A stretch of 64,000 nt of DNA, taken from contig OZ251219.1 of assembly GCA_965240465.1 (NCBI GenBank), positions 928,001 to 992,000 of the forward strand, in the 5' to 3' direction. The notes under the pieces were generated by a model. It was not told where the DNA came from. It made no database searches and saw only the letters and a list, made by a program, of their open reading frames with translations. Source of the stretch: a bacterium (GTDB lineage: Bacteria; SAR324; JACQKK01). Position numbers and translations under genes: made by a program. Shown here piece by piece: positions 729 to 62,825 of the stretch; the stretch's first letter is position 1, and every line of letters starts with the position of its first letter.

Positions 729-1934
729 CTATGATATGCAGGGCCAGTTCAGCCATAGCTGTTCTAGGGATAGCTGTTTGTTGGCATGCCAAAGGGAAAT
801 TTTTTGCTTGGTTTTTAAGGTGTCTTGATAACATCGGAAGGCTGCTTCACAGGAGAATTGTGGGGCTACCTTATGAAGTACTGCTTGGCCATTCGCGTTG
901 AGCAAGGTGCTATTTTTCAATTGTTCAGCGTTTTCTATTATTTGTTTATCTCCCTGTGATGCCCTCAGTTTTAGTACAGCTACATCATGCCACCATCCTT
1001 CTAGCCAATCTAACACAAAGCACCAGTCATCCCCGGCTGCCCACCTAGTACAATGAGACGATAACTTAGCAAATGAACGTTCTGATGAAGAAAGCAGATC
1101 CAGCAGAATTTTTTCCACCTGTTGCCATTCCTCAGCATGATCCAACAATAGCGGCCAAACTCCGGCAGATATTCCTGAGAATCGCAAAGCAAATTGCAAA
1201 GATTCCCCATGCAGTCCGGCTTTTTTAAGTAGCACTTGTCGCGAGTCATAATTCAGAGGACGGAATGGTAACTTCACACAACGCGAGGCAACGGTCTCAG
1301 GCAAGGAATGCAAGTAATTGGTGGATAATATCAGCACTCCCTTACCTGAGGGTTCTTCCAAGGTTTTTAATAGGGCATTAGCAGTCTCTAATCGCATGGT
1401 CTCCGCGCGGGATATAATTAACACTCGTCTGCCCCAGAGCGAGGTGGACAATGCTAGATTATCAATTGCTTGCCGTAGTTGTTCAATTTTTATGCTTATT
1501 CCCTCAGGTAGCAACTTGCTAATCTGAAGGTTATTCCCCGCCGTTGCCAACTTACAAGCCTGACACTCCCCACAGGCCTCTATTTCGCTATTTGCTAGAC
1601 CTCCGAATTCTGTTTGTGCTAGTCGTTTTAGTAGCGGCTCGCAATTTAAGGCAGCTGCCAATGCTAATGCCGTGCTATGTTTGCCCACATGAGGTGGCCC
1701 GTGAAACAGCCAAGCCCGAGGAGGATCCTCCATCTGTAAGGCGGTTTGAATTTGCTGGATGGCAGGCTGCTGACCCAATAACTGGGAAAATTTTACTACC
1801 AAACTGGTATCCTCTGTAGCTTCTTTCCTCGTAGCTTCTTTTATCGTAGCTTCTTTTATCGTAGATTCTTTTATCATGGCTTCTTTTTTTAAGGGATCTC
1901 CTAATCGCGGGCAGAAGACTAGGTGTCCTTCCAA
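729..1934 (-). CDS. holB: DNA polymerase III subunit delta' (alternative start ATG 1877)
   Basis: WLFHGPPHVGK, Zn motif ACGECQAC, ANALLKTLEEP, TVASRC; follows tmk. Confidence 0.92.
   Translation of the reverse strand: MEGHLVFCPRLGDPLKKEAMIKESTIKEATIKEATRKEATEDTSLVVKFSQLLGQQPAIQQIQTALQMEDPPRAWLFHGPPHVGKHSTALALAAALNCEPLLKRLAQTEFGGLANSEIEACGECQACKLATAGNNLQISKLLPEGISIKIEQLRQAIDNLALSTSLWGRRVLIISRAETMRLETANALLKTLEEPSGKGVLILSTNYLHSLPETVASRCVKLPFRPLNYDSRQVLLKKAGLHGESLQFALRFSGISAGVWPLLLDHAEEWQQVEKILLDLLSSSERSFAKLSSHCTRWAAGDDWCFVLDWLEGWWHDVAVLKLRASQGDKQIIENAEQLKNSTLLNANGQAVLHKVAPQFSCEAAFRCYQDTLKTKQKISLWHANKQLSLEQLWLNWPCIS
1816..1890. repeat. 15-bp in-frame tandem repeat, about 5 degenerate copies (KEATI)
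   Basis: GTAGCTTCTTTTATC units at the holB N-terminus. Confidence 0.85.
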
Positions 1935-2584
1935 GCCGTCAATTTTGGTTCTATTAATTTCCAGATCTGCTCATGTACCGCCTGAGGCTCTTTTTCAGCA
2001 AGTACACGCTGGATGCGGTCCGATGACTGGCATAGCCTTTGATAACCCTCTGCGGCACGCTGTTGCAAGGAGAAATTGAGATCAAAGCGATCATTTTTGG
2101 AGAGATCTGGCAAGTTATTTTTTGCTCTAATGCGTGCTTGGCAAGCCTCTGGCGAGGCATCCAGCCACAGGGTCAACTGTGGTAAGAAGGGGACAATGTT
2201 ATCTGTCATCCAATCTTCAAGTGATCGGAGATCTAGTTGCTGACCGTATTGTTGATAAGCAATGGTGGAGTCGTGAAATCTGTCGCAAAGGACTATCTGC
2301 CCCTTATCCAAGGCGGGACAAATAACCGCCTTGAGATGCTGAAGGCGATCGGCAAGAAATAAGAGCAATAGTGCTTGGGAGTCAATTTCATTTCCATCCT
2401 GTAATTTTTTTCTCAGGGCATGACCCAGTAGAGCAGTGCTGGGTTCTTTGGTGATGAGTAACGAGGTGCCTAGGGCCTTCAATTTCGGTTGCAAACGCTG
2501 ATGCAAAAGCTGGATCTGCGAGCTTTTGCCACTACCGTCAATCCCCTCCAGACTGATAAACAAACCATCACCCGATAGTGTCAT
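1919..2584 (-). CDS. tmk: Thymidylate kinase
   Basis: FISLEGIDGSGKSSQ P-loop, CDRFHDSTIAYQ. Confidence 0.96.
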   Translation of the reverse strand: MTLSGDGLFISLEGIDGSGKSSQIQLLHQRLQPKLKALGTSLLITKEPSTALLGHALRKKLQDGNEIDSQALLLLFLADRLQHLKAVICPALDKGQIVLCDRFHDSTIAYQQYGQQLDLRSLEDWMTDNIVPFLPQLTLWLDASPEACQARIRAKNNLPDLSKNDRFDLNFSLQQRAAEGYQRLCQSSDRIQRVLAEKEPQAVHEQIWKLIEPKLTAWKDT

Positions 2585-2601
2585 GTAGATATTCCCTTAG
2601 G

Positions 2602-3722: not shown

Positions 3723-3792
3723 CACGGCAAACTATGGAAACATGGCAAACTATGGAAACATGGCAATCCATGGAAACATGGCAAGCCATGGC
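3723..3792. repeat. 18-bp tandem repeat, about 4 copies, between lpxK and def
   Basis: CATGGCAAACTATGGAAA units. Confidence 0.85.
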
Positions 3793-3804: not shown

Positions 3805-5034
3805 TTATTTTAGACCGCATCGCTTTAGAAATTCAAGCAGAAAGTCAAGAAATGCCTTTTGGGGCTGGAGGGTTAAGTGCAGGACTAAGATTTTTTCAGC
3901 TAGTAATTTCTGCGATACACCAGCCTGAGAATAATTAGCCTGAGAATAATTAGCCTGAGAATAATTAGCCTGAGAAGATCTTAGCAGGTTTTTCAGTTTT
4001 ACGGCATCTTTGGCAGTAATCACCCACACTCGTTCTTTGCTCAATTGCCGTAGGTGTTCAAGATCTTTGTTGGTGTAGGAATGGTGGTTTGGAAAATAGT
4101 AGCGGGCAATGATGTTCGCCCCTAAGCGTTTCAGTGAATGCTCCAAATGCTCAGGATGGGCAATTCCGCACCAGCTGCCTACCTCTAGCCCCTTCAGTGT
4201 AGACAGAGGATAGGATTGTTCATCTTGGAGATCACTCAGCCTCAGTTGTTCTGCGTCACAGTGAAATATGGGAATTTTTAATCCCTGTGCTTGCCATTCT
4301 GCTCGGCGTAGCGGGATATTATCATCATCAGATCGGGTAAGCAGCAAGACATCAGCCCGATGTGCTGCCCAAAGCGGCTCCCGCAATTCTCCCCGAGGTA
4401 GTAGGCGAGCCTCCTTCAGCGGTTGAGAGGCATCCCAGATCAGCACATTAAGACGCCGCTTTGGCTCATCTCTACCCCCCCCCTCCCGTACAAAAGCTAC
4501 ATGCTGGAAGGCATCATCCAAAACAGCCACCTGAGGGGCATCCCGAAGAACAGCAGTACGCAAATTAAATCCACGATCAGCACCTACATAAAAAGGAAGC
4601 AGGTCATGCTTAGTAGCCAGCATGGCTACTTCATCACCCAGCCAGCTGGCAGGGTTCTTCCTCCAGTAAGAATTATCATCTTCGCTCATGCACGCCCTTA
4701 AAGAACGAGCCCTTACCTGTCTGCGATAACCCCGACTTAAACACACCACCCGCCAACCCCTCTGACTTATCCAGCCCAGTAGCACATCTACCAGCGGGGT
4801 TTTCCCGCTACCACCAACACTTAATCCTCCCACCACAATACAAACCATCCCGCTTCTTCTAACCCAGTCCCAATCAGAATTATCATCCCGTTCCCTCTTA
4901 TAGCCTTGAATCAAGGCTCTCCATCCCAATCGCAGTCTGATTAGACTCCCATACAGAACCCAGAGCGGCCATCGGAGCAACCAATGAATTTTTATTATGT
5001 CCTGCTGCCGTGAGGTGGAATTAGTGGTGTTCAT
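3805..5034 (-). CDS. lpxK: Tetraacyldisaccharide 4'-kinase
   Basis: VGGLSVGGSGKTP, LSRGY, GDE, LDDAFQH, LLPRGELREP, ITAKDAVK. Confidence 0.95.
   Translation of the reverse strand: MNTTNSTSRQQDIIKIHWLLRWPLWVLYGSLIRLRLGWRALIQGYKRERDDNSDWDWVRRSGMVCIVVGGLSVGGSGKTPLVDVLLGWISQRGWRVVCLSRGYRRQVRARSLRACMSEDDNSYWRKNPASWLGDEVAMLATKHDLLPFYVGADRGFNLRTAVLRDAPQVAVLDDAFQHVAFVREGGGRDEPKRRLNVLIWDASQPLKEARLLPRGELREPLWAAHRADVLLLTRSDDDNIPLRRAEWQAQGLKIPIFHCDAEQLRLSDLQDEQSYPLSTLKGLEVGSWCGIAHPEHLEHSLKRLGANIIARYYFPNHHSYTNKDLEHLRQLSKERVWVITAKDAVKLKNLLRSSQANYSQANYSQANYSQAGVSQKLLAEKILVLHLTLQPQKAFLDFLLEFLKRCGLK
3922..3976. repeat. 15-bp in-frame tandem repeat in lpxK (SQANY x3)
   Basis: AGCCTGAGAATAATT x3 plus a partial copy. 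Confidence 0.92.
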
Positions 5035-5116: not shown

Positions 5117-5181
5117 GCGTATAGGCGTCGGACATATGTAGGCAGCGTATAGGCGTCGGACATGTAGGCAGCGTATAGGCG
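5117..5181. repeat. 26-28-bp tandem repeat, about 2.5 copies, in the lpxK/mltA divergent region
   Basis: GCGTATAGGCGTCGGACAT(AT)GTAGGCA units. Confidence 0.8.
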
Positions 5182-8488: not shown

Positions 8489-10579
8489 CTAAGCAGAGAG
8501 TTTTTCAGAGTGCCAACAAGCGGCTAGGTGTCCATCAGATTTTTTCTCTAGCGGGGGACGATGTTGACGGCACTTCTCAGTAGCATAAGAACAGCGATCT
8601 CTAAAGACACAGCCCGCGGGCAAATCATGCAGTGGAGGGACAATGCCGGGAATTTCCCTTAATCTCCCGGATTTTTGAGTACTCGGCAAGGAACGCATCA
8701 ATCCTAAGGTATAAGGATGCTTTGGGTTGGAAAAGAGGTCGTTAACCGAAGATTCTTCCACCTTGAAGCCCGCATACATGACGGCTACTCGTTGGCAGGT
8801 TTGGGCAACTACGCCTAAATCGTGGGTAATCATCAGGACCGCAGATTTGCTTTTATGGCAAAGATCTGCCAGTAATTCCAGAATCTGAGCTTGGATGGTA
8901 ACATCCAGGGCGGTGGTGGGTTCATCGGCAATGAGCACTTTGGGGTTGCAGGAAAGAGCCATGGCAATCATCACTCGCTGACGCATTCCCCCTGACATGT
9001 TATGCGGATATTCATCAATTTTGCGATGAGGCTCTGGAATTCGCACTACATCCAACATTTCTATCGTCTTTTGGCGGGCTTCTTTCTTAGACAATCCCTG
9101 GTGTAGGCGAATCACTTCTGATATCTGGAAACCTACCGTCAAGACTGGGTTAAGCGAAGTCATCGGCTCTTGAAAAATCATGGATATATCATTGCCTCTA
9201 ACTCGGCGTAGTTGATTTTCTTTGAGGGAAAGAAGGTCTTTACCCTCAAAATGGATAGATCCTGAGATTTCCACTGGAGGAGAGGGAATAAGCTTCAAAA
9301 TAGTGAGGGCGGCCACGGTTTTGCCACAGCCAGACTCACCTACCAAGCCCATAGTTTGGCCTTTTTTCAGATTCAGGGATAAGTTACTGACGGCCCGCAC
9401 TTTTCCTTGGCGAGCATGAAATACCACGCTGACATCTTCTATTTCCAGCAAATGCCGAGGCGATGATTTGGTATTTGACAAAGGGAGGGTAGCAACATTC
9501 TGCTTAGCGGCGGATTGTTTTTCTGAGCTCCGAGTCTGGGTTGTGAACACTTTTTTGAGATGATAGGGTAGGAGAGCAATAATGTTATGGGGAAGTCTAG
9601 CAGAAATAAATCTGAAATAATAATCCTTTTTATGGGTAGGAGGATTGATGCTTAAACTCATCGGCATATACCAAGGTTTGGTGATTTGAATTAGGGGATC
9701 TAGCCTTTCTCTCAAGGCATCCCCCAGCAGGTTGCTAGCCAGCACTAAGCAGGCAATAGCAGTACCCGGAGCCCACAGCAACCAAGGTGCCTGAGTAGCC
9801 TCAGCTAGACTAAGCTCAGCTAGCATGCGTCCCCATGAAGGAGTAGGGTCTGGGATCCCCAGCCCCAAAAAAGATAGAGAAGCTTCCAGCAATACTGCAT
9901 GTCCTAGTTGGGCACTGACCAATACCAGCAAAGGAGCGTAAAGATTTGGTAATAAATGAAATAATAAAATGCGAAAATAAGAAATCGCCTGCAAATGAGC
10001 CGCTTGAATAAATAAATGCTGACGCAACTCCAGCACCAAGGTACGCACTAAACGGGCCGTTCTTGGGGCCAAAGGAAGAGCAATCGCAACAACCACAGCC
10101 GTCTTTGAAGGACCCACTACCGCTACCAAAACAACCGCCGCTACCAACAAAGGCAAACTCTGCCAAGCTTCCAGCAATCGCTGTAATAAGAAATCGGCAG
10201 CCCGCGGTAGCAAACCACCCAACGCTCCCAGCAAAAATCCGATGCCACCCGATAATAAACACGCCCCGCAAGCAACACTCAGAGATACCCTAGCCCCAAA
10301 CAAAAGACGACTGAAAATATCGCGCCCTAAGGCATCAGCCCCCAGCCAATGAGACCCAGAGGGCAACGACAAGGGCTTTGCTACCGCCTGCAGGGGATCA
10401 TGCAGTACTAACAAATCGGCTGCCAAAGCACAGATAACCAAGCTCCCCAAAACCAGTGCCGCCAACCAAAACTGAACCCCCCATCCCCGCCACCACCAAC
10501 CAACTCGCAGGCTGGATGGCAACTGAGATGGCAATTGAGATGAGAACCGAGATGTTCTGCTAGGCAAAGTTCTTAGCAT
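8489..10579 (-). CDS. Fused ABC permease (DppC-like) and ATP-binding (DppD-like) protein
   Basis: N-terminal [11 protein letters not shown]...LSFLGLG..SWG; C-terminal [26 protein letters not shown]. Confidence 0.9.
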
Positions 10580-11586: not shown

Positions 11587-13245
11587 CTAGGGAGCTCTAT
11601 TACCCGTGGGGGTTGTTTTATTCTCCAGCCATACATTCTCCAGTCGCCAGCCATGATAGGCACTCTGGCGTAACTTCAATCCTTTCAATTCTGGCGATAA
11701 AATCGTGTGCCCCCGCAACTGTAGAATTATCGGACGAGCTTGTTCGGCGATGAGACGGCGTTCAATGATGTGTACCAATCGCAATCTTTTTCTAAAAGAG
11801 CGAGTTTGCGACTGCTTTTGAAATAAAACTTCCAGTTCCAGATTGCAATATCCCGAATAATTGCGTTCTGATTGGCAGGAGTAGTTTTCCAAGTACATAG
11901 CATCGGGGTTGTCGGGACCGAGGCCAGTGACGTTCATCCCCAGCTGGAAATCTCCTTCTTTGATACGGCTATGCCAAGCACTTCTATCTATCACCCGAAT
12001 GGTGGGACGGATGAAGGTTCTGCTTAATTGAGCGGTCAGCAAGGAAGCCGCCTTGCGATAAATTCTCACGTCCCGAGTAGATATGACTAAAGACAGCGGT
12101 TTTTTGGCTGAGTATCCTTGCTCGGCGAGGTATTTTTGGGCTTGCTGGAGGGATTTTCTATTTGCTTGCAAGCGGAGTATCTCCTTAGCGGGCAGTCCCC
12201 AAACCCCGTCTGGAGGAGACATAAGTGCTCCCCCTAAAAAAGATCCTTTTGTCCCCCCGAAAGCTTGTTGAAAGGCTTGGCGGTCAATGGCAAAATCGAT
12301 TGCTTGGCGGATGGAAGTATTCTTTAGCACGGGATCTTTAGGATTAAACAACAGATTCAAGGAAGCATTAGAAGGACGTCCTAAGCTAATCAAATTAGAG
12401 GCACGCTTTTGGATATCTTGAGCATCTTGAGGAGTAGCATCGTGAGGAAAGCCCAACTGTTGTTGACCTGATGCCATCGCCAACATGCGAGTGGGATGAT
12501 TAGGAATTATCAAATACACAATCTCATCCAGATAAGGCCGTCTTGGACGCCAATAATTCTCATTCCGTTGCAACTTGATTTCCTGACCCCGCCGCCAATG
12601 CACAAAACGCATCGGACCACTACCCACCGGCTCGGTACGCATCTTAGCCAAGGACACATGAGCTGGATAAACAGGAGAATAACCGCTAGCTAGCATGTCC
12701 AACAGAGAAGGTTGGGGAGCCCGCAGATGAAAACTTACCTGAAAATTGCCAGCGGTGGTAATCTTTTTCACTTGCTGATACCAAACTCGCCTCGGATTCT
12801 TACGCAATAACTGGGCATTCTCGCCTCTGATAACATCCCAAGTGTACTTAACATCGCTACTGGTTAAGGGTTTGCCATCGTGCCATTTTACGTCTTTTCT
12901 AAGTATCAAGCTTAGACGCAAGCCATCTTTGCTCCACTGCCAGCTTTTGGCCAGCTCGGGAACAATTCTTTTGGGTGATTCCACTGCTGAGCGGGGGTCA
13001 TAGGCTACCAGATTGTTAAACAAAGGCATGGCAGGAAAATTAGTACTCAAGGTAGCTTCCTCGTGAATAGACAAACTAGGAGGATTTCCTCGCAACTGAG
13101 CACGCAAAATCCCTCCCCGCGTCTGTGCCAATCCCTCGGTAGGATATGCCAGTAAGCCTCCTATGATGACGGACGCAATAATCACGAACGCAATAACCAC
13201 GAACGAAATAAAATAAGCTGGAACAAAAGAATTAGGGCGAATCAT
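11587..13245 (-). CDS. ABC transporter substrate-binding protein, family 5
   Basis: Signal peptide, PELAKSW, VKWHDGKPLTSSDVKYT, PVGSGP. Confidence 0.92.
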   Translation of the reverse strand: MIRPNSFVPAYFISFVVIAFVIIASVIIGGLLAYPTEGLAQTRGGILRAQLRGNPPSLSIHEEATLSTNFPAMPLFNNLVAYDPRSAVESPKRIVPELAKSWQWSKDGLRLSLILRKDVKWHDGKPLTSSDVKYTWDVIRGENAQLLRKNPRRVWYQQVKKITTAGNFQVSFHLRAPQPSLLDMLASGYSPVYPAHVSLAKMRTEPVGSGPMRFVHWRRGQEIKLQRNENYWRPRRPYLDEIVYLIIPNHPTRMLAMASGQQQLGFPHDATPQDAQDIQKRASNLISLGRPSNASLNLLFNPKDPVLKNTSIRQAIDFAIDRQAFQQAFGGTKGSFLGGALMSPPDGVWGLPAKEILRLQANRKSLQQAQKYLAEQGYSAKKPLSLVISTRDVRIYRKAASLLTAQLSRTFIRPTIRVIDRSAWHSRIKEGDFQLGMNVTGLGPDNPDAMYLENYSCQSERNYSGYCNLELEVLFQKQSQTRSFRKRLRLVHIIERRLIAEQARPIILQLRGHTILSPELKGLKLRQSAYHGWRLENVWLENKTTPTGNRAP

Positions 13246-14662: not shown

Positions 14663-14739
14663 GGTACTTTCTGGGTACTTTCTGAGTACTTTCTGGGTAC
14701 TTTCTGAGTACTTTCTGAGTACTTTCTGGGCACTTTCTT
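14663..14739. repeat. 11-bp tandem repeat x7 upstream of mreB
   Basis: (G/A)GTACTTTCTG units. Confidence 0.93.
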
Positions 14740-14752: not shown

Positions 14753-15661
14753 GTGAATTTATTGGGTAGCTGGATGGCAGCGGATGTTGGTCATCGGCAA
14801 TTGAAATTGGTGTGTAGGGGGCATGAGGTCTGGGATCTGGAGATTCCTCCGCTCAGCGACACAGAAGAAGAAGGTCCGCGCTTAGCTGCGGTACTGAACT
14901 GGGGGTTTAGGCAGGGCTGGAACTGGAGTTGGTTCTTGAGAAGAATGAGTGGTCGGCTGGTGGTGGTATATCCGCCGGGAACGGATGATGAAATTCTACA
15001 GAAGTGGCAGCATGATTTGAGTTCCTTAGGTGTTGCCCGACTGGAGATGGTGGATGCATCTTTGGCAGCGGCGGCTGGTAGCGGCGAACAGGTGGGAGAG
15101 TTAGCCTGTCGGGGGGTGTTGAGTATGGGGGCAATTTGCAGTTGGTTTGCGGTGTATGCCTTGGGAGAATTGGTAGCTTGTTGCGAATTGCCATTTGGAG
15201 GTTGGAATTTTGACGTGGCTATCCAGTCATTTATTAAGAGTCGTGATAAAATAGATATTTCGGAGTTGAAAGCAGAAGGATTGCGATCTCAGTTAGGTAG
15301 ACTTCAATTTGGTACTAAGCGTTCAGAATTGCTATTACAAGGAAGAGAATCTTCTGGTACTGAAAAGACAACCATTCTGTACGATACCGAATTATGTGAG
15401 TTGTTGCAGGATTGTCTGGAACCTTTGTTATGGAGTATTCGGGTAGTTATGCGTAAGATACCTCCTGAGATGTTAGTAGATCTTAGTCGGAATCCTTTGT
15501 GTTTGGTGGGTGGATTGGCTCGTATGACCGGGATGGCAGAATTTTTGGAAAAACAACTTCATCTGCCTGTTAAGGTCCCTTCCAATCCAGAGCATGCGGT
15601 GGTGTTGGGAGCCCTGAAACTGGCCGCTGAAAGACGGTTCTGGAGACCAATCTCTAACTAG
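14753..15661 (+). CDS. mreB: Highly divergent MreB-like actin-fold protein
   Basis: First gene of mreC-mreD-mrdA; residual motifs SLAAAAGSG, GGWNFDVAI, IPPEMLVD, LVGGLA, NPEHAVVLGA. Confidence 0.75.
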   Translation: MNLLGSWMAADVGHRQLKLVCRGHEVWDLEIPPLSDTEEEGPRLAAVLNWGFRQGWNWSWFLRRMSGRLVVVYPPGTDDEILQKWQHDLSSLGVARLEMVDASLAAAAGSGEQVGELACRGVLSMGAICSWFAVYALGELVACCELPFGGWNFDVAIQSFIKSRDKIDISELKAEGLRSQLGRLQFGTKRSELLLQGRESSGTEKTTILYDTELCELLQDCLEPLLWSIRVVMRKIPPEMLVDLSRNPLCLVGGLARMTGMAEFLEKQLHLPVKVPSNPEHAVVLGALKLAAERRFWRPISN

Positions 15662-16590: not shown

Positions 16591-16713
16591 GGCCATCATA
16601 AACGCCCATCATAAATGCCCATCCCAAATGATTGACGCAGGAAACTAACGCAGGAAACTAACGCAGGAAACTAACGCAGGAAACTAACGCAGGAAACTAA
16701 CGCAGGAAACTAA
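16591..16713. repeat. Two adjacent 13-bp arrays between mreC and mreD: GCCCATCATAAAY about 3x, then ACGCAGGAAACTA x6 (16635-16712)
   Basis: Six perfect copies end 2 nt before the mreD ATG. Confidence 0.93.
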
Positions 16714-17211: not shown

Positions 17212-19065
17212 GTGAAATTCGGTTCTTTTGATTCCAGTGGAAATGACCTACGGCAGTTCCGCACTCGGGTCTCCGTTATGAGGTGGATCATAGTGGGATT
17301 ATCGGTGATATGGATAAGCAAGCTGTTCTTCATGCAGGTGATCTTTTACCAGTACTACGACCGTCTAGCACGAGGAAACCGAATCAGAGTAATTCCACAG
17401 GAAGGCCCCCGAGGATTTATCTATGACCGTACTGGAGAGATCTTGGCGTATAATCGTCCTGCATATCATGTTAATTTTATGAAGGAAGATTCTCCCAACC
17501 CCGAAAAAACCCTAAGCGTTTTATCTCGCCTGACTGGTATCCCCCTAAATAACATCAAGAAGCGTTGGCAGTCCGAGGGCGAAATTCCATTTAGAGCAGT
17601 CCGAATATTGGACTCCATTCATAGAAACACTGCAGACATCATAGACAGCCATCACAGCGATATGCCTGGGGTGGCAGTAGAAGTGGAATTCAAACGCTTC
17701 TACCCTAAGCGGAATGTGTTGTCGCATGTACTGGGATATGTAAGTGCTAGCTCGGGTTTTCAGGCGAATCAGTTAAGATCTAATCAGCGTCTTTCTGGTC
17801 GGGTGGTGGGGCAGACAGGCTTGGAGGAATCCTATAATCAGCAATTACTAGGTACCGATGGAGGACATCAGGTAGAGGTGGATCACCTGGGACGCGATCT
17901 ACGGTTACTGGATAAGCCTGTCCCAGCGGTGGCAGGGAAGGAACTTAGGATCTCCATTGATGTCAATTTACAGCAGTATGCTCGCGATTTATTGGCGGAT
18001 AAAAAGGGGGTAATATTGCTATCTCAAGTAGCCACAGGCAAAATTCTGACTATGGTCAGTAGTCCCGATTACGATCCTAATGTCTTTGTGCGTGGCATCG
18101 CTCAGCAGGAGTGGAAGGACATTACTGATGATGACCAAGCAGCTTTGATCAATCGTGCTATTCAGGGTTTGTATCCCCCAGGGTCTACCTTCAAGATGGC
18201 AGTGGCATTGGCAGCTCTAGAGGAGGGCTTGATTGATGGAAAAAGCACTTTCTATTGTCCAGGGCATTATTTGCTTAGGGGTCGCCGACGATATTGCTGG
18301 TTGAAAAAAGGTCATGGAGTGGTTAATTTGCGTCAGGCGATTGCTAGATCTTGCAATGTGTTTTTTTATAATCTGGGAATCCAGCTAAAGGGCGAGCGAC
18401 TAGCACAGTATGCCCGCTTGCTGGGTTTTGGACGTACTAGCAGTCTGGAGCTGCCTAGCGAGAAGAAGGGCTTGGTCCCAGACCCGCAATGGAAAAAGAA
18501 AACCACCGGGCAACCATGGTTTGAAGGCGATGACATAAACTATGCCATCGGTCAAGGATATCTGAATGTGACTCCCATTCAATTATTGGGATATATTCAA
18601 TTTTTTGCTAGTCGGGGTTCGGTTTCTCATCCGACCCTGCTTAATTTCGCGGCTGATACCAATTCGCAGCCCGCGGATCTTTTTAAGCCTCAGCATCTGG
18701 AAATGATCCGCCAAGGAATGCTGGATGCCGTCAACCACGTAGGCACCGCTGGTAGGGCACGTACCTCGCTGTTTCAAGTAGCTGGCAAAACAGGAACCTC
18801 CCAAGTACAAGGCAGAAGGTACCGAGGTGTAAATAAATTATTACCTCATTCCATCTTCATTGGATATGCACCCGCAGCACTCCCAGAACTAGCTGTGGTG
18901 GTTATAGTGGAACACGGCAAAGAAGGAGGACTGGTGGCTGCTCCATTCGCTAGAAAAATGCTACTGTACGCCCATAAGCACCTGTACCCTCTGTATGATC
19001 CTCCTGCCGAAACAGAGCCATCAACCGAGCCATCAACCAAGCCATCAACCAAGCCATCAACCTAG
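17212..19065 (+). CDS. mrdA: Penicillin-binding protein 2
   Basis: RGFIYDRTG, YPPGSTFK (SxxK), SCN, KTGT. Confidence 0.95.
   Translation: MKFGSFDSSGNDLRQFRTRVSVMRWIIVGLSVIWISKLFFMQVIFYQYYDRLARGNRIRVIPQEGPRGFIYDRTGEILAYNRPAYHVNFMKEDSPNPEKTLSVLSRLTGIPLNNIKKRWQSEGEIPFRAVRILDSIHRNTADIIDSHHSDMPGVAVEVEFKRFYPKRNVLSHVLGYVSASSGFQANQLRSNQRLSGRVVGQTGLEESYNQQLLGTDGGHQVEVDHLGRDLRLLDKPVPAVAGKELRISIDVNLQQYARDLLADKKGVILLSQVATGKILTMVSSPDYDPNVFVRGIAQQEWKDITDDDQAALINRAIQGLYPPGSTFKMAVALAALEEGLIDGKSTFYCPGHYLLRGRRRYCWLKKGHGVVNLRQAIARSCNVFFYNLGIQLKGERLAQYARLLGFGRTSSLELPSEKKGLVPDPQWKKKTTGQPWFEGDDINYAIGQGYLNVTPIQLLGYIQFFASRGSVSHPTLLNFAADTNSQPADLFKPQHLEMIRQGMLDAVNHVGTAGRARTSLFQVAGKTGTSQVQGRRYRGVNKLLPHSIFIGYAPAALPELAVVVIVEHGKEGGLVAAPFARKMLLYAHKHLYPLYDPPAETEPSTEPSTKPSTKPST
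19015..19062. repeat. 12-bp in-frame repeat x4 at the mrdA C-terminus ((E/K)PST)
   Basis: (G/A)AGCCATCAACC units ending at the stop codon. Confidence 0.9.
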
Positions 19066-19092
19066 CTGCCATCCTCCAATTTCAAGATTCCA

Positions 19093-20666: not shown

Positions 20667-20702
20667 TGTATGCTTAGACCCCTCCTACGACACAATTACT
20701 TT

Positions 20703-20772
20703 AATCATCAACCACTTCAATCATCAACCACTTCAATCATCAACCACTTCAATCATCAACCACTTCAATCAT
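20703..20772. repeat. 16-bp tandem repeat x4 between convergent genes
   Basis: AATCATCAACCACTTC x4; the last copy overlaps the stop of the nucleotidyltransferase. Confidence 0.93.
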
Positions 20773-26443: not shown

Positions 26444-26528
26444 CAAATGACATTTCAAATGACATTCCAAATGGCATTCCAAATGGCATTCCAAATGGCA
26501 TTCCAAATGGCATTACTCAAATGACATT
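26444..26528. repeat. 12-bp tandem repeat, about 7 copies, upstream of murA
   Basis: CAAATG(G/A)CATTC units. Confidence 0.9.
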
Positions 26529-40612: not shown

Positions 40613-40687
40613 GACAGGATGGAGTTTGTATGTTTGTTAAATCTGGTACCATGAAAATATTTAACCTTGATTTTTCACCTTAAAAAA

Positions 40688-42083: not shown

Positions 42084-42286
42084 TGCCAGTAATTAGAAAT
42101 ATCCTCAGTAAGATCGGAGTTGCGTTCAAGCATCTTTCATTTTCTACTGAATTGGGTTATAATTGCCAAAGGTAGACGGCTGAGGATAAGCAAAAGGAGC
42201 GGATGAGAAGGTTGGGTGTGGGTGAGAGGAGGAAAAGGTGTGTTCCTCGTGGATGCTAGCATGCCAGCGGGGGTGAGGCAAAAATA

Positions 42287-42516
42287 GGAGGCAGGAACAA
42301 AGGAGGCAGAAGCAAAGGAGGCAGAAGCAAAGGAAGCAGAAGCAAAGGAGGCAGAAGCAAAGGAGGCAGAAGCAAAGGAGGCAGGAACAAAGGAGGCAGG
42401 AACAAAGGAGGCAGGAACAAAGGAGGCAAGAACAAAGGAGGTAGGAACAAAGGAGGCAAGAACAAAGGAGGTAGGAACAAAGGAGGCAAGAACAAAGGAG
42501 GCAGGAACAAAGGAGG
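42287..42516. repeat. 15-bp tandem repeat x15 in the hemJ/aroA divergent region
   Basis: GGAGGCAGGAACAAA and variants. Confidence 0.95.
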
Positions 42517-42574
42517 TGTTAGGCGTTAGACGATAGCGATTATCGCTGATTGCGTTTAGGCGAGAAGTGAATAA

Positions 42575-50207: not shown

Positions 50208-50885
50208 TTAGACTTTCTCGGTGGATTCTTCTTTTACTTCTGTTTTTTCCTCAGGCTTTGCTTCAGTTTGTTCTTCGGTTCTTACTTTAGGTGGGGTGTC
50301 GGCTTTGGTTTCAGTAGCCTTGGTTTCGGTAGCTTTGGTTTCAGTAGCCTTGGTTTCGGTAGCTTTGGTTTCAGTAGCCTTGGTTTCGGTAGCTTTGGTT
50401 TCGGTAGCCTTGGTTTCAGTAGCCTTGGTTTCAGTAGCCTTGGTTTCGGTAGCTTTGGTTTCAGTAGCCTTGGTTTCAGTAGCCTTGGTTTCAGTAGCCT
50501 TGGTTTCAGTAGCCTTGGTTTCGGTAGCCTTGGTTTCGGTAGAGGTGGTTTCTTTAGTCTTGCTAGCTGCCGTGATAGAAGATTTATCAGGGGGAGCAGA
50601 TTTTGGTTTTCGTTTTTTGGTGGCAGGGGGCAGAATACGATCGTGCTTAATGCTATGTAGCTCTAGTAGTCGACTAACTCTCTGACTGGGCTGAGCACCG
50701 ACATCCATCCAGTATTTGGCACGCTCGGTATTGATTTGGCTCTTGTTATCTTCCAGCAGAGGATTGTAACTTCCCAGTCTTTCTATGAAGCGGCCATCTC
50801 TGGGTGCCGAACGCTCTTGTACTACTATGCGAAAGAATGGGCGACTTTTGCGTCCTCCTCGTGCCATCCGAATGCTTAACGACAT
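50208..50885 (-). CDS. rpsP: 30S ribosomal protein S16 with long repetitive C-terminal extension
   Basis: IRMARGG, PFFRIVV, PRDGRFIERLGSYNP, GAQPS; then (TETKA)16. Confidence 0.96.
   Translation of the reverse strand: MSLSIRMARGGRKSRPFFRIVVQERSAPRDGRFIERLGSYNPLLEDNKSQINTERAKYWMDVGAQPSQRVSRLLELHSIKHDRILPPATKKRKPKSAPPDKSSITAASKTKETTSTETKATETKATETKATETKATETKATETKATETKATETKATETKATETKATETKATETKATETKATETKATETKATETKADTPPKVRTEEQTEAKPEEKTEVKEESTEKV
50301..50540. repeat. 15-bp in-frame tandem repeat x16 in rpsP
   Basis: AGC(C/T)TTGGTTTC(A/G)GT units. Confidence 0.97.
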
Positions 50886-55991: not shown

Positions 55992-56951
55992 TTATTCAGG
56001 CATCAGTTCGGTTTTATCAATCCAGTTGGGGCTTGATTTTACTTGCAGCTCTAAGTGTACCCGGCAGCCAAGATGTTTTTGCAGAGCTAGTCGGGCAGAT
56101 TTGCCTATTTTTGCGATCATTCTTCCTTTATGTCCTATCAGGATGGCTTTCTGTGAATCCCGTCTGGTGTAAATCTTGGCAGAGATCCACATCAATGAAC
56201 CTCTTTTCTCCCAGTGTTCTATCTGCACCGTTGTTTCATGAGGTAGCTCTTGGCTCACAAATCTTAGCAATTGTTCGCGTATCAGCTCTCCCAGCTGGAC
56301 ATGATCCGATTGAGAAATAACTTGCTCCTCAGGAAACCATCGCGGACCCACCGGCAAACAGGATACCAACTCTTTTTTTAACTCCTCCACCCCCTCCCCT
56401 GTGAGTGCAGATACCAAAAAAATCCGCTTTACAAATAGCAACAACTCTAATTCCTGTCGGCATTGCCTTAAATTCTCAGCACTAGCGGCGTCTATTTTAT
56501 TTATCACTCCCCAAACTACCCCCCCCCCAGTACGCAGGAGGTTCTCTATTGCTCGCTGTTCCTTTCCCGCAACTCTTAGGGGATCCGCCACCAAAAGATG
56601 ATGCTCCGTCCCGCAAGCTGCTTGCTGTCTCTCCCTGCTCATAAACATCTCCAGCCGATTACGGGACTCTAGTCGCATCCCCGGGGTATCCGTCAAAACC
56701 AACTGATAACCCTCCCCATTGCAAATACCCCACCGCCTTCTCCTAGTGGTGTGAGGATGTCGAGATACAATGGCTACTTTCTCTCCCACCAAACGATTGC
56801 ATAAACTAGACTTGCCAACATTAGGACGACCCAATACGGATACTATCCCAGAACAAAATTCCTTTTCTTGAGATTCTGAATTCTGCTTATCGCTTGAAAC
56901 TGACTGCTTAAAGGGTGCTTCTGACATTGTCTCACTGGGCGATTGTCTCAC
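55992..56951 (-). CDS. era: GTPase Era (start uncertain; ATG near 56927 likely)
   Basis: GRPNVGKSS, DTPG, NKID, SA, KH domain SQKAILIG. Confidence 0.95.
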   Translation of the reverse strand: MRQSPSETMSEAPFKQSVSSDKQNSESQEKEFCSGIVSVLGRPNVGKSSLCNRLVGEKVAIVSRHPHTTRRRRWGICNGEGYQLVLTDTPGMRLESRNRLEMFMSRERQQAACGTEHHLLVADPLRVAGKEQRAIENLLRTGGGVVWGVINKIDAASAENLRQCRQELELLLFVKRIFLVSALTGEGVEELKKELVSCLPVGPRWFPEEQVISQSDHVQLGELIREQLLRFVSQELPHETTVQIEHWEKRGSLMWISAKIYTRRDSQKAILIGHKGRMIAKIGKSARLALQKHLGCRVHLELQVKSSPNWIDKTELMPE

Positions 56952-57003
56952 TGGGCGATTGTCTCACTGGGCAATTGTCTCATTTGGCAATTGTCTTATT
57001 GGG
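56926..57003. repeat. 16-bp tandem repeat, about 5 copies degrading rightwards, over the era start
   Basis: ATTGTCTCACTGGGCG units. Confidence 0.88.
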
Positions 57004-57009
57004 TAGCCC

Positions 57010-57224: not shown

Positions 57225-57410
57225 ATGGTGCTGAGATGGTGCTGAGATGGTGCTGAGATGGTGCTGAGATGGTGCTGAGATGGTGCTGAGATGGTGCTGA
57301 GATGGTGCTGAGATGGTGCTGAGATGGTGCTGAGATGGTGCTGAGATGGTGCTGAGATGGTGCTGAGATAGTACTTAGATGGTATGAGATAGCACTGAGA
57401 TAACACTGAA
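57225..57410. repeat. 11-bp tandem repeat x13 perfect (57225-57367) plus about 4 decayed copies, upstream of selA
   Basis: ATGGTGCTGAG units. Confidence 0.96.
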
Positions 57411-57441: not shown

Positions 57442-58944
57442 ATGGTTACTGCAATTAAGAGAGGCACAAGCAAAGCTGGCACAAGCTGCGATCAATCATT
57501 AGAAAGTCAGGTTAAGCTCTCGCCTTCTATGCTAGCGGTGTTGCCTTCGGTGCGGGAAGCGGAAGCGTATTTGGTTCAGCAAATTGGTGGGGAATCTGAG
57601 CAGATCAAGAGAATTCGTCCGCAGCTTGAGGTTGCCTTAGGGCAGTTAAGAGGTTCTCTGAGGCAAGATAAAGCGGTGGTTATTTCACGTCAGCAGATTT
57701 TGGAACAGCTGGCTTATAAGTTATCGTCGTCGCTGAGTGGACTGCGGGAGGTTATTAATGCTAGTGGAGTGGTGTTACACACCAATTTGGGTAGGGCTCC
57801 CTTGGGGAGTGAGTTATTTAGGCGTACTTTGGCGTGCTTATCGGGGGCTGTCAATTTGGAATATGACCTGCTGAAAGGCGAGCGTGGTTTTCGGGCTACG
57901 GGAGTGGAAGTTTTGCTAAGCCAGCTGGCTGGGGCTGAAGATGGGCTGGTATCTAATAACAATGCGGCGGCGGTTTTGCTCCTGCTGACTGCTTTAGCCT
58001 CTCAGGCTGAGGTGATAGTATCGCGAGGAGAGTTGGTGGAAATCGGGGGAGGGTTTCGGGTGCCTGAAATCATGCAGCAATCGGGGGTGAAGTTGGTGGA
58101 GGTAGGCACTACCAACCGTACTTGTCTAGGCGATTATGCCCAAGCGATTACTTCTCGTACTGTGGCATTACTGAAGGTGCATCGTTCTAATTTCACCATG
58201 GGCGGATTTGTGGAGGAAGTTCCCTTATCAGAGTTGGCTCGGCTGGCGAGTAAGCAGCGGGTTTCTTTGTGGTGCGATCAGGGCAGTGCCAGTTTTTACC
58301 GTTTTCGGCAGCCAGAGCTTAAGAAAATGGAAACCCCAATGGAGCTGCTGAAAATGGGAGTACAAGTACTCACCTTCAGTGCTGATAAATTGTTGGGTTC
58401 GGTGCAGGCGGGCTTGGTGGTAGGTGATAAAAAAAGCATTGCTCGGATGCGGGCACATCCGTTGTTTCGCAGTTTGCGTTGCGACAAGGTCAGGTTGGCA
58501 CTACTGGAGCAAACCCTGTTGGATAGCTTGTCCCCCAAGACCTTTCCCGAGAAAAATCCGACCACTGCTTTTTTGGAACGCACCCCAGATGAGCTACATT
58601 CCTTGGCAAAAGCCTTGTTGAACTTGCTAGGTCAGCTTGAGAAAAAAGGCTTACACTGCCAATTGCTCCAGACAGAAAGCTTGGTGGGAGCTGGTGCTGC
58701 CCCGGACATAAAACTTCCCAGTTTGGCGTTATCCCTAGTACTGAAAAACATGTCGGCAGATAAGCTCACGCAACGACTCCGCACTGCTCGGGTGCCGATC
58801 ATTGCTCGTCAGCAAAAAGGACAAGTATGGCTGGATATGCGTACTCTATCTGAGGCTCAATTACCCATCATCGCGGAAACCTTGACCAAGATCACCATGG
58901 ATTTTGCTCAATCCTTGACACCACCAGCAAAACTAAGCGACTAA
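57442..58944 (+). CDS. selA: L-seryl-tRNA(Sec) selenium transferase
   Basis: VINASGVVLHTNLGRAP, NNNAAAV, SRGELVEIGGGFR, EVGTTNRT, FSADKLLG. Confidence 0.96.
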   Translation: MVTAIKRGTSKAGTSCDQSLESQVKLSPSMLAVLPSVREAEAYLVQQIGGESEQIKRIRPQLEVALGQLRGSLRQDKAVVISRQQILEQLAYKLSSSLSGLREVINASGVVLHTNLGRAPLGSELFRRTLACLSGAVNLEYDLLKGERGFRATGVEVLLSQLAGAEDGLVSNNNAAAVLLLLTALASQAEVIVSRGELVEIGGGFRVPEIMQQSGVKLVEVGTTNRTCLGDYAQAITSRTVALLKVHRSNFTMGGFVEEVPLSELARLASKQRVSLWCDQGSASFYRFRQPELKKMETPMELLKMGVQVLTFSADKLLGSVQAGLVVGDKKSIARMRAHPLFRSLRCDKVRLALLEQTLLDSLSPKTFPEKNPTTAFLERTPDELHSLAKALLNLLGQLEKKGLHCQLLQTESLVGAGAAPDIKLPSLALSLVLKNMSADKLTQRLRTARVPIIARQQKGQVWLDMRTLSEAQLPIIAETLTKITMDFAQSLTPPAKLSD

Positions 58945-60416: not shown

Positions 60417-60666
60417 GGGGATGATAGGAGGGGGGATGATAGGAGGGGGGATGATAGGAGGGGGGATGATAGGAGGGGGGATGATAGGAGGGGGGATGGA
60501 AGGGTAGCAGGTAGGGGGGGAGATGACAGGGCGGGGGGATGATAGGAGGGGGGATGGAAGGGTAGCAGGTAGGGGGGGAGATGACAGGGCGGGGGGATGA
60601 TAGGAGGGGGGATGGAAGGGTAGCAGGTAGGGGGGGAGATGACAGGGCGGGGGGGATGATAGGAGG
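60417..60666. repeat. G-rich composite repeat: 15-bp units about x4 followed by about 58-bp units x3
   Basis: ATGATAGGAGGGGGG; ATGATAGGAGGGGGGATGGAAGGGTAGCAGGTAGGGGGGGAGATGACAGGGCGGGGGG. Confidence 0.92.
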
Positions 60667-60896
60667 CGGCAGGCAGGGAAGCCAAGCCGTCAAGATTTAG
60701 TAAGCGGATGTCGTCTGTGGAATACCAAGGAGGTAGCTCATAAGAGGAGCAAGAATGCCTGCGGCTGAAGATAGGCATCTAGGAGCGGTGGATGGGTACA
60801 TCCCCCGCGGAAAATTAGAGAGGGAGGAAGAGTAATGTGTGTTGACTGTTGGAAAATGTTTGTTAGTAGTTATTAGCCAAGTTTTTGTATTTATAG

Positions 60897-62825
60897 ATGT
60901 TTGTCTGCCAGGGTACAGCTAAGACCTTAAATGGTTTCAAGCGTATAAACGTGCATCATCATTTACAGGAAGCCCTAGGTGCTTGGCATGATCTATATGA
61001 GAAAAAGGGAGGGGACCCTATCGGAATGGAATCTGCCTTGAACAGCCAGTTGGAAAGCCAATTTGCCACTGAGGCGATGGGAAAATTAGCACTGAGTGGG
61101 CAAATGAGTTGCATGTTGCGGGTGCGTGATATTCAAAGCTTCGTGACTGAATGCTCCTTGCTGAGAGATATTAAAATTGAAGTACTGGAACATATTTTAC
61201 TGGAACAGAATCTATCAGCCCGCTGGGCTACGGTGCGTGATACCTTGGCTAGAAATGCCTCTATCTTGTGTGATATTAAACCTATGCCAGCCTTGATGAG
61301 GCTGGAAACCTGTAAACAGCAATTGTCCGACCCTTTGTCTGTTTTGGGAAAGTTGTTGGTGGCTACCGCCTTATTTAATTTTGATCAGGATAAAGAACAT
61401 CCTCCCTTAAACTGGCTGGTTCACTTCAAAAGCAAGGCTTTTCCCGAACACAAATGGCATCATCAGGTCAAGGAAATGGAAGATTGGAGACCATCCAACC
61501 CCTTGTGTCGCTGGGAGTACCTAGCCGCAGACTTGATGCACGTGTTGTTTAGAGAAGCACGCTCCCAACTGCCCGAGCATTCATCTTATCAGGGTTTTCA
61601 GACTACTAAGGACGAGCAAGGTTTTGCCGTCCTTCCCGCTAATAGCAGTCGCAAAACCTATTGTTTATTTCAGCCTTTGTCAAAGGATGAAAAGCAGTAC
61701 TGCCAGCCTTTGTCAAAGGATGAAAAGCAGGATTGCCAGCCTTTGTCAAAGGATGAAAAGCAGGATTGCCAGCTTTTAACAAAGGATGAAAAGCGGGATT
61801 GCCAGCTTTTAACAAAGGATGAAAAGCAGGATTGCCAGCTCCTGTCCAGGGATGAGGACTATTCCACCCCGCCAACTGGGAACAACCCAACAGGAGAAGT
61901 AACAACCACAGCAGAGCCTGTTGCCAAAGACGCGGCAAAACCGCAGCAAATAGAGCTCTTTCCTCTGAATGCTAGCGATTTCCTACCCCAACTTCATCGC
62001 TTTGGTCATCGTCGCTTAGGACCTCAAACACCCCGCCTCCTAGCCGTGCTTATGGAGCAACTGGCAGTTGCCGAGCCAGCCATACCGCTCACCATCTCGC
62101 TTGAGAAAATCAGTACTCGGGTAGCCAGTGCAAACGATACTCCCAAGAAACATTCCTCCCGTAGAAAAAATCTGGTGAAAATCATCAACTGGCTACAGCA
62201 AGAAGTCCTTATGCATCATGTGCTGGATAATACCGACAGCACCCAGCAATCCCTAAGCAAAGGAGGATTATTGAACGTCTTGCGTTGGGAAGGACCGCAA
62301 CACATATTTGTTCCTCAGGATACTCATGACTATAAAGGCAACTATCCCCACAACTATCCCCACAACTATCCCCACAACTATCCCCACAACCAGCAAGATG
62401 CACACCAAGTGAGAATCCTATTGGACAGCAGCTTCTTCAATCCTGATGGTAGCTGCATGGCAGCACTCTGGAGAGACTTGCCTTCGGCACTCTTTTCTCC
62501 CGATAACCAAACCCACCCCTATGCACCGGCTTTGTTCGCCTTCATGAGACAAAAATGGAATTCTCAATCCAGAAAAACATGGACTATTCACGTACAAACC
62601 CTGCTGGAACAATGCGGAATTTGGTACAGTCCCTCTGGTCGCTACCGTGCCTTGGAAACCCTCAAAAGAGACCTAAACTTCATGAAACAACAAGGCTGGT
62701 TGTATAAATGGCACATCACTGAATATCCCCAAAGACAAACCCTCCACCAAGAATGCATCCTCACTGCTTCGGTGCCTGCAATAATTTCTAAAACCTGGAA
62801 AAAATCGGCTTCTTACTATGGGTGA
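60897..62825 (+). CDS. Hypothetical protein with a putative Rep/TrfA-like tandem winged-helix C-terminal region
   Basis: 642-aa ORF; C-terminal HPYAPALFAF..WTIHVQTLLEQCG..LETLKRDLNFMKQQGWLYKWHI resembles a replication-initiator WH2; QQIELF motif. The ORF is confident, the function is tentative. Confidence 0.55.
   Translation: MFVCQGTAKTLNGFKRINVHHHLQEALGAWHDLYEKKGGDPIGMESALNSQLESQFATEAMGKLALSGQMSCMLRVRDIQSFVTECSLLRDIKIEVLEHILLEQNLSARWATVRDTLARNASILCDIKPMPALMRLETCKQQLSDPLSVLGKLLVATALFNFDQDKEHPPLNWLVHFKSKAFPEHKWHHQVKEMEDWRPSNPLCRWEYLAADLMHVLFREARSQLPEHSSYQGFQTTKDEQGFAVLPANSSRKTYCLFQPLSKDEKQYCQPLSKDEKQDCQPLSKDEKQDCQLLTKDEKRDCQLLTKDEKQDCQLLSRDEDYSTPPTGNNPTGEVTTTAEPVAKDAAKPQQIELFPLNASDFLPQLHRFGHRRLGPQTPRLLAVLMEQLAVAEPAIPLTISLEKISTRVASANDTPKKHSSRRKNLVKIINWLQQEVLMHHVLDNTDSTQQSLSKGGLLNVLRWEGPQHIFVPQDTHDYKGNYPHNYPHNYPHNYPHNQQDAHQVRILLDSSFFNPDGSCMAALWRDLPSALFSPDNQTHPYAPALFAFMRQKWNSQSRKTWTIHVQTLLEQCGIWYSPSGRYRALETLKRDLNFMKQQGWLYKWHITEYPQRQTLHQECILTASVPAIISKTWKKSASYYG
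61671..61858. repeat. 33-bp in-frame repeat x5.5 (QPLSKDEKQDC)
   Basis: CAGCCTTTGTCAAAGGATGAAAAGCAGGATTGC and variants. Confidence 0.93.
62339..62390. repeat. 12-bp in-frame repeat x4 (NYPH)
   Basis: CAACTATCCCCA x4. Confidence 0.93.

Follow-up and report, generated by a model that had tools for sequence, protein, structure and literature searches.

A 64-kb stretch of a SAR324 bacterium, referred to as the window (G000:C1:928001-992000), is densely populated with tandem arrays whose repeat units are unrelated to one another, and comparable arrays occur throughout the genome from which it derives. The arrays are private to their loci, turn over between species, preserve the reading frame when located in genes, and vary in density in large zones that are mirrored about the replication origin. 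On balance they are probably young minisatellites that are born locally, resized by misalignment during DNA synthesis, filtered by selection for frame, and generated at a rate that depends on chromosomal position. An original prediction, made from the sequence of the window alone, had described the arrays as the output of a general repeat-generating process, attributed to a slippage-prone replisome or missing repair, with possible use of the repeats as tunable leaders and disordered tails.

The source genome (G000) is a single contig of 1,599,138 bp with 45% GC and a marker-gene completeness of 83.6%. It is a chromosome that carries dnaA as well as ribosomal and cell-wall genes, and the best named relatives of its MnmG protein are SAR324 cluster metagenome-assembled genomes (MAGs; 62 and 59% identity). 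Genes were predicted with our own crude caller, which yielded 1211 genes and ~88% coding sequence. Comparisons were made with a species of the same genus (G001; single contig of 1.72 Mb) whose orthologs share a median protein identity of 64% with those of G000; the remaining family members have genomes of 2.3–5.2 Mb. Arrays were identified with Tandem Repeats Finder (TRF) using scores of at least 40 for rows in the window and at least 50 for merged arrays. TRF detected 43 rows in the window that merged into 23 arrays covering 3.7% of the sequence, whereas the shuffled window produced none. Across the genome, 1000 rows collapsed into 648 merged arrays which occupy 105,425 bp or 6.6% of the total. 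Short-period arrays, defined by a TRF period ≤60, account for 531 of the 648. The short-period arrays are head-to-tail in structure and match the unit-length range (~10–100 bp) of repeats of the minisatellite or variable number tandem repeat (VNTR) type. Under the rules applied previously to Borgs, the extrachromosomal elements of Methanoperedens (perfect repeats, at least 50 nt, at least three units), 125 perfect regions were recovered in G000, equivalent to 0.75% of the genome and 78 regions per Mb.

The units of different arrays are unrelated. Among the 531 short-period arrays 505 possess singleton units, and only 13 pairs share at least four 10-mers. Exact copies of the unit were found elsewhere in the genome for 111 of 503 arrays, which is the chance expectation for 12–14-mers. 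Just five of the 125 perfect arrays terminate on a whole unit, and the other 120 end in a partial unit that can be of any length. Intergenic periods have a mode of 13–14 bp and are shorter than 10 bp in only two of 219 arrays. The decay at one end that the original prediction noted for the arrays at 56926–57003 and 57225–57409 is evident in the sequence and is mirrored by a genome-wide excess: 18 of 45 arrays showed one-sided decay compared to 12.0 ± 2.2 when unit order was shuffled, a value that was reached in 11 of 2000 shuffles. Inspection of over-represented words as candidate uptake or nicking signals provided nothing convincing.

Within called genes, 250 of 254 internal arrays have periods that are multiples of three, in contrast to 61 of 208 intergenic arrays, the latter being the chance level. 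Perfect arrays follow the same pattern (39 of 39 within genes; 20 of 61 between genes). As over-long open reading frame (ORF) calls could swallow leader arrays that happen to keep the frame, the comparison was repeated with bracketed arrays, which are flanked on either side by an alignment of 20 or more residues to the G001 ortholog. The period was divisible by three in 91 of 92 bracketed arrays, the sole exception being a 22-bp two-copy repeat. Expressed per kb, coding DNA contains 0.169 arrays with divisible periods and 0.010 with non-divisible periods, compared to 0.328 and 0.796, respectively, in intergenic DNA. Thus, frame-breaking arrays are depleted ~80-fold in genes whereas frame-keeping arrays are depleted ~2-fold. 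Short-period arrays are otherwise common in genes (237 of 531; ~45%), and 234 in-frame arrays are spread over 186 of the 1211 genes (~15%). The peptides that they encode are enriched in proline (2.2-fold), glutamate, lysine, threonine, serine, alanine and glycine, and are depleted in phenylalanine, tryptophan, methionine, tyrosine, cysteine, isoleucine, leucine and arginine. The N-terminal tenth of proteins is richest in in-frame arrays, although several of the N-terminal cases probably are leaders swallowed by over-long ORF calls. On the coding strand, genic arrays have a T content of 0.19 (versus 0.26) and a C content of 0.26 (versus 0.22). No adenine bias was apparent in the units, with A at 0.30 in genic arrays versus 0.28 in all coding DNA and at 0.25 in intergenic arrays. 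Overall, the proposals that the arrays arise genome-wide from unrelated units, that selection acts on frame, and that the genic arrays add low-complexity peptides were all upheld.

The density of arrays was assessed across the clade. The G000 genome as a whole contains 25.9 arrays per 64 kb. The first 400 kb sampled from G001 gave 17.3 arrays per 64 kb, and analysis of 93% of this genome yielded 425 arrays that comprise 2.1% of bases (~17 arrays per 64 kb). Other members of the same family, f1, also are repeat-rich: 13.1 arrays per 64 kb in G009 (200 kb), 7.3 in G008 (140 kb), and 11.4 in nine further genomes (32 arrays in 180 kb sampled as 10 stretches). Values in the sister family, f2, were 1.0 per 64 kb for ten genomes (three arrays in 186.8 kb) and 1.1 for G027 (60 kb), and 80 loci from diverse bacteria (1.32 Mb) averaged 4.85. 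Thus, the trait belongs to one SAR324 family, is strongest in the genus of G000 and G001, and is weak in the sister family. Arrays probably are undercounted in short-read MAGs. Ordinary repeat density for the clade, which the original prediction had named as grounds for its own refutation, applies in part, as the whole of family f1 is repeat-rich.

Within the genus the arrays are not conserved. Orthologous genes carried an array in both species in 43 cases, in G000 only in 102, in G001 only in 255, and in neither in 525, which indicates that array presence is unlinked between orthologs (odds ratio 0.87, p = 0.5). The 43 gene pairs with arrays in both genomes had no shared units. Residues encoded by bracketed arrays opposed gaps in the ortholog at a frequency of 43% compared to 1.4% for aligned residues generally, and at least half of the array was gap in G001 for 42 of the 92 bracketed arrays. 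Ribosomal protein S16 is illustrative: a low-complexity tail is present in both species, and the (TETKA)n repeat is found in G000 only.

Array density in G000 is organized symmetrically about the replication origin, which was positioned by dnaA at 605 kb and by the cumulative GC-skew minimum at 607,845. Numbers of short-period arrays in successive 40-kb intervals from the origin were 24, 25, 21, 23, 24, 16, 14, 7, 15, 9, 4, 3, 4, 8, 23, 36, 27, 8, 16 and 5 on the right arm and 19, 25, 21, 19, 17, 14, 16, 15, 4, 4, 3, 1, 1, 3, 11, 17, 18, 4, 2 and 5 on the left arm. The mirror correlation at the origin was 0.74 and ranked second among 79 axes, the only better axis being the antipode at 1.40 Mb, which is the same axis on a circle. 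The region 0–280 kb from the origin on both arms contains 278 arrays (31.8 per 64 kb) and the 400–520 kb zone contains 16 (4.3 per 64 kb), so that density varies ~7-fold among zones of hundreds of kb. None of 122 perfect short-period arrays was located at ±400–520 kb, where ~18 were expected. Intergenic and genic arrays co-vary by zone (rho 0.61) and, therefore, it is the supply of arrays that differs between zones and not tolerance at the protein level. Array counts also tracked GC content at third codon positions (GC3) when arrays were masked: rho was 0.69 with 40-kb bins and 0.61 with 20-kb bins, the latter being reached by one of 79 circular shifts. The equivalent value for GC at codon positions 1 and 2 was 0.04.

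A zonal organization also was evident in G001. The best mirror axis of its GC profile is the G001 origin, and the arrays mirror about the same point with a correlation of 0.79 (rank 6 of 86). Coupling between arrays and GC3 was observed across G001 genes (rho 0.63), with zones of 0.50–0.54 versus 0.465–0.48 GC, and G009 showed the same trend (rho 0.75, n = 10). Orthologs have retained their distance from the origin in the two congeners (rho 0.905). The profiles themselves differ: G000 is rich in arrays at 0–300 kb and poor at 400–540 kb from the origin, whereas in G001 the first 240 kb are poor and the rich zone, which begins at 280 kb, reaches 560 kb on one arm and 720 kb on the opposite arm. 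Accordingly, local array densities at orthologs are inversely related between the genomes (rho -0.53), and orthologs that differ in GC3 differ correspondingly in array density (rho 0.72). The border of the 280-kb zone was considered as a rearrangement breakpoint, but is situated inside a block that is colinear with G001. Thus, the mirrored zones and the difference between congeners tie the generator of the arrays to position on the chromosome arm. The pattern, being zonal, mirrored and coupled to GC3, argues against both a uniformly sloppy replisome and gene-by-gene selection for function. Among the papers searched, none ties tandem-repeat density to replichore position and none describes the trait in SAR324, the three papers listed of four that mention both SAR324 and tandem repeats being unrelated. 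The joint variation of repeat density and GC3 in large origin-mirrored zones, with a different profile in a congener, is new to the present analysis, as are the distribution at family level and the comparison with Borgs under Borg criteria.

Gene order is heavily scrambled between G000 and G001 at retained distance from the origin, which is the pattern expected from repeated origin-symmetric inversions, and in G001 only about half of the genes run in the direction of replication. Two adjacent G000 genes at G000:C1:288433-290720 have a GC3 of 0.15 compared to ~0.44 in their neighbors; the G001 orthologs (64–68% identity) are located elsewhere.

The repair genes whose absence had been suggested as a cause are in place. 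The mutS, mutL, recA, recJ and xseA genes are present and open in G000, as are five matches to UvrD-type helicases, the 5′-exonuclease domain of Pol I, and RNases HI and HII (rnhA and rnhB). G000 is not, therefore, a repair-deficient mutator of the type that results from loss of mutS or mutL, recA, recJ or related genes. An extra polymerase of the type found in Borgs was discounted, as the family-B polymerase profile (PF00136) had no match in G000 or G001. DnaQ-type sequences (TIGR00573, PF00929) were not matched in G000, G001 or G008, but were recovered in seven of 18 f1 genomes and seven of 12 f2 genomes. Loss of the DnaQ proofreading subunit might generate a slippage-prone replisome and thereby the arrays, and the lack of matches in two genomes that each are a single contig, G000 and G001, is in keeping with this idea. 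Nevertheless, G009 is repeat-rich despite carrying a DnaQ-type gene, whereas G027 lacks a match and is repeat-poor, so that absence of DnaQ does not account for the arrays. Zero or one array per sampled locus was counted in additional genomes that lacked a match, among them G022, G023, G025 and G029. Moreover, a uniform replisome defect would not produce zones, and we consider this explanation very improbable.

The observations can be accommodated by a scheme in which a local stretch of 10–60 bp of any sequence would first be duplicated in tandem. Copies then would be gained and lost by strand misalignment during DNA synthesis, either at replication forks or in repair synthesis. Loops of one unit, mostly at least 11 bp, would be too large for MutS-dependent mismatch repair. 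Their escape from correction would leave shorter periods almost absent despite intact MutS and MutL, and the scarcity of short periods fits with removal of small loops by a functional mismatch repair system. The birth rate would be unusually high in one SAR324 family, peaking in this genus of reduced genomes, and would be set by the place or time of replication or recombination on the mirrored arms, coupled to GC3 and independent of gene content. Selection then would purge frame-breaking genic arrays ~80-fold, with frame-keeping arrays persisting at approximately half of the intergenic density, and the survivors would add hydrophilic sequence of low complexity to protein tails, linkers and N-termini. 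The original prediction thus retains its selection for frame, its genome-wide process with unrelated units, its peptides, and its likeness to Borgs, and loses missing repair, the uniformity of the process and, as detailed below, tunable leaders.

Alternatively, the arrays might be made and resized mainly by homologous recombination through unequal exchange, gene conversion or slippage within displacement loops, with the rich zones being recombination-rich regions in which GC3 is raised. The correlation of density with GC3 and not with GC at codon positions 1 and 2, which recurs as a GC3 trend in G001 and G009, is as anticipated from this model, and recA, recJ and the UvrD-type helicases are intact. 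One-sided decay, as seen here, has been reported for recombination-associated human minisatellites. Against this, RecA-independent slippage suffices for short tandem repeats in E. coli. Published bacterial recombination landscapes are replichore-symmetric and GC-linked, in agreement with this model, but also are shared by related species and peak close to the origin (PMC11879095), whereas the profiles of G000 and G001 are opposite. We consider recombination less likely as the principal generator. A broader and tentative proposal, which we hold at less than even confidence, is that minisatellite birth in this genus naturally reports a landscape, of mutation or of recombination, that is symmetric on the replichores, that drags GC3 with it, and whose profile has shifted between two species in which distances from the origin are maintained. 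The same machinery then would be nearly silent in some zones, with background density and 240 kb free of perfect arrays, and would operate at ~7-fold higher activity elsewhere. If so, array density could serve as a map of instability linked to replication in uncultured bacteria.

It also was considered that the arrays are kept because they are useful, either as leaders or promoters tuned by copy number or as evolvable disordered segments, by analogy with contingency loci and with proposals for Borg repeats. The frame-keeping arrays rich in proline, glutamate, lysine, threonine and serine in 186 of 1211 genes, their merely ~2-fold deficit in genes relative to intergenic regions, and the low-complexity S16 tail kept in both species are compatible with usefulness. 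However, intergenic arrays show no bias toward gene starts and instead follow gap length in all four contexts: 68 arrays in 58 kb of gaps between minus-strand genes, 55 in 56 kb between plus-strand genes, 61 in 55 kb of divergent gaps, and 35 in 24 kb of convergent gaps. Arrays acting as Shine-Dalgarno-like leaders were rejected as GGAGG units occurred five times in sense and four times in antisense among 232 array-gene pairs. Furthermore, no array is conserved with G001, orthologs are not hit together, and the co-variation of genic and intergenic arrays by zone points to supply and not demand. Retention for usefulness is accordingly improbable. That the arrays or their copy numbers are artefacts of assembly or polishing is scarcely credible. 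Read data were inspected as k-mer contigs (Logan, k = 31) from two runs of one sample, which is probably the source. The copy numbers given here are those of the assembly, and the Logan contigs break at every array, stopping 30–40 nt inside. In a contig from run X2 that spans the 11-bp array, 11 units are missing and a flanking nucleotide differs; as this could result from k-mer collapse, it is not taken as polymorphism. In opposition to an artefact, every unique flank matches the independent contigs with no differences and k-mer depth is ~3-fold higher in bins that contain long arrays. A 7-nt indel adjoins the 58-bp array in run X1. An artefact also would ignore reading frames and would not yield decayed end units, and 13 further assemblies from the family likewise contain arrays.

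Several points weigh against slippage at position-dependent rates as the origin of the arrays. Decay polarity and unit orientation are not linked to fork direction, contrary to simple slippage on leading or lagging strands: the decayed end was distal to the fork in 22 arrays and proximal in 19 in G000 (19 and 13 in G001), and the G-rich unit strand coincided with the leading strand in 64% of cases in G000 and 63% in G001 versus 59 and 58% of random windows (p = 0.08 and 0.24). Similarly, co-orientation of genes with replication in G001 was not significantly correlated with array density (rho 0.27, p = 0.08). The zonal statistics amount to ~8–10 blocks per genome in two related genomes, so that p-values overstate the support. 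GC skew in G000 is untidy, with a maximum at 1.56 Mb that is not antipodal to the origin. No gene that was lost or gained accounts for the high array rate, as there is no family-B polymerase and absence of DnaQ does not track density. The gene caller also misses some small genes, including hemJ and maf.

The presence of dense, unrelated arrays in the window, together with the positions and periods originally given for them, was confirmed by TRF, and comparison with NCBIfam confirmed the identities of holB, tmk, def, lpxK, mreD, mrdA, mnmG, efp, aroA, rpsP, era, selA and rsgA. The assignment of arrays to genes held for lpxK, mrdA, rpsP and ORF 60897–62825, in which the repeats are firmly in-frame within coding sequence, and requires revision for two other loci. 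A perfect 15-bp × 3.7 insertion at 3922–3976 is close to the C-terminus of lpxK (minus strand), and 89% of its residues oppose a gap in G001. In mrdA (PBP2; plus strand), the 12-bp × 4.2 array at 19016–19066 makes up the C-terminal tail, the domain ending ~27 residues earlier. The tail of S16 is encoded on the minus strand by the 15-bp × 15.9 array at 50305–50542, which specifies (TETKA)n, and ends in a degenerate 12-bp × 4.7 array at 50232–50287. ORF 60897–62825 (plus strand) harbors a 33-bp × 5.1 array at 61671–61839 and a perfect 12-bp × 4.3 array, (NYPH)n, at 62339–62390, with 84 and 78% of residues, respectively, opposing gaps in G001. By contrast, the 18-bp × 3.7 array at 3726–3791 precedes MALTIRQYPNPIL, which is the likely true start of Def as the G001 protein begins MATLSLRLFPDSIL. 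The 15-bp × 4.8 array at 1816–1887 lies between the tmk stop codon and the conserved HolB core and is either an N-terminal extension or a leader. Other arrays near gene starts are a 12-bp × 3.3 array at 10515–10554 (minus strand) within the N-terminal 22 residues of a fused oligopeptide permease-ATPase ORF, a 15-bp × 2.9 array at 13169–13211 (minus strand) in the N-terminal region of a peptide-binding protein ORF, and a 12-bp × 3.2 array at 38618–38656 (plus strand) in a TonB-dependent receptor, where it falls in the N-terminal linker that precedes the plug domain.

Intergenic periods in the window are 26, 11/33, 13, 13, 16, 12, 14, 24, 42, 15, 16, 11 and 58 bp. A 26-bp × 2.4 array is located at 5117–5181 and an 11-bp × 6.9 array at 14663–14738 is upstream of an MreB-like ORF. 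Two 13-bp arrays follow at 16593–16630 (× 2.9) and 16635–16713 (× 6.1), the second of which is perfect and immediately precedes mreD. A convergent gap contains a 16-bp × 4.7 array (20698–20772) and a divergent gap a 12-bp × 6.9 array (26444–26528). Upstream of mnmG is a 14-bp × 6.4 array (30605–30694), with a degenerate 24-bp × 2.3 intergenic array at 30704–30758, and a composite purine-rich array of 15/42/84 bp is upstream of efp (40683–40959). The 15-bp × 15.4 array at 42286–42516 is in the hemJ-aroA gap, and an ORF that spans it (42137–42586) has no family match. At the start of era is a 16-bp × 4.4 array (56926–57003) with a clean left end and a decayed right end, and the 11-bp × 16 array at 57225–57409, which is preceded by a G-run, comprises 13 perfect units and then decayed units. 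The G-rich 58-bp × 4.3 array occupies 60417–60666, and the 7-nt variant of run X1 is just upstream.

Additional features were apparent in the window and beyond. The gene at 14753–15661, ahead of mreC, mreD and mrdA, matches MreB weakly (94 bits; cut-off 515) and only from profile position ~101, and is a divergent or shortened MreB. Disruption of mreB by the 11-bp array was rejected as inspection of the three forward frames revealed no MreB N-terminal sequence upstream. The ORF at 8489–10579 encodes a single protein of 696 residues in which an Opp/Nik-type permease (residues 38–298) is followed by an OppD-type ATPase (374–693), and selA, for L-seryl-tRNA(Sec) selenium transferase, is at 57442–58944. 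One of very few repeats of short period in the window is (GGGTTT)x4 at 31700–31723. G000 as a whole contains 259 G/C homopolymer runs of at least 7 nt, with lengths of up to 18 and with 46 of at least 10 nt; the number exceeds the expectation from composition by a rough estimate, although run lengths may reflect long-read errors. These runs were found near arrays in 19 instances compared to 7.4 expected and share zones with the arrays (rho 0.51). Outside the window, five large genes with internal repeats of 354–375 bp are arranged in a row at G000:C1:255696-273253. The 3′ end of rnhA (profile positions ~100–139) recurs as four fragments between these genes, at 261288, 264802, 267855 and 271375, and the arrangement suggests segmental tandem duplication in which the rnhA end was copied on each occasion. 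The five genes had no G001 ortholog by the filter used.

The arrays may be compared with tandem repeat systems described previously. Contingency loci and VNTRs of pathogens are slippage-prone repeats in genes and promoters; contingency loci are few in number, are confined to certain surface or regulatory genes, and frequently disrupt the frame as part of their function. In G000 there are hundreds of arrays that are distributed across housekeeping genes and gaps of every type, and frame-breaking repeats within genes are scarce (periods were not multiples of three in 14 of 251 genic short-period arrays and in one of 92 bracketed arrays). With inserts in ~15% of genes, annotation and short-read assembly of such genomes require care. 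Ehrlichia ruminantium, which also has a small genome, displays active expansion and contraction of tandem repeats of variable copy number genome-wide, mainly in non-coding DNA. Its intergenic regions are very long and its coding ratio is ~64% (PMC10710844), unlike the high coding content of G000 and the large share of its arrays in genes. Base-substitution rates that vary in mirrored waves on bacterial replichores (Dillon 2018, PMC6106087; Niccum 2019, PMC6606806) similarly represent an origin-symmetric mutational property that is independent of gene content. Those waves concern point mutations in mismatch-repair-deficient laboratory lines. The signal described here instead combines standing repeat density with GC3, in wild genomes whose mutS and mutL are intact, and congeners have different profiles.

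The strongest resemblance is to Borgs, as had been predicted, and it extends to the numbers. Ten Borg genomes contain 460 perfect regions that make up 0.62% of the sequence (Schoelmerich et al. 2023, PMC9879509), compared to 0.75% in G000 by the same criteria. In both settings the units are unique to their loci, derive from local sequence, and finish in partial units; turnover is rapid between close relatives; and the repeat peptides are hydrophilic and of low complexity with T-poor codons. All Borg units within ORFs are divisible by three versus 14–38% between genes (PMC9879509), and the intergenic proportion in G000 is 29–33%. The differences are that the G000 arrays reside on a bacterial main chromosome and not on an extrachromosomal element, that the trait is family-wide, that no family-B polymerase was found, that the units are not enriched in adenine, and that many arrays are decayed. 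The zoned, GC3-tied density of G000 is not reported in the sections seen of the Borg paper (PMC9879509). Thus, the statistics that are the hallmark of Borg repeats also occur on an ordinary bacterial chromosome and in a SAR324 family, and alone are no proof of adaptation by a special element. If minisatellite birth does follow a replichore-symmetric landscape, a repeat regime at the level of Borgs requires neither a dedicated polymerase nor an extrachromosomal lifestyle.

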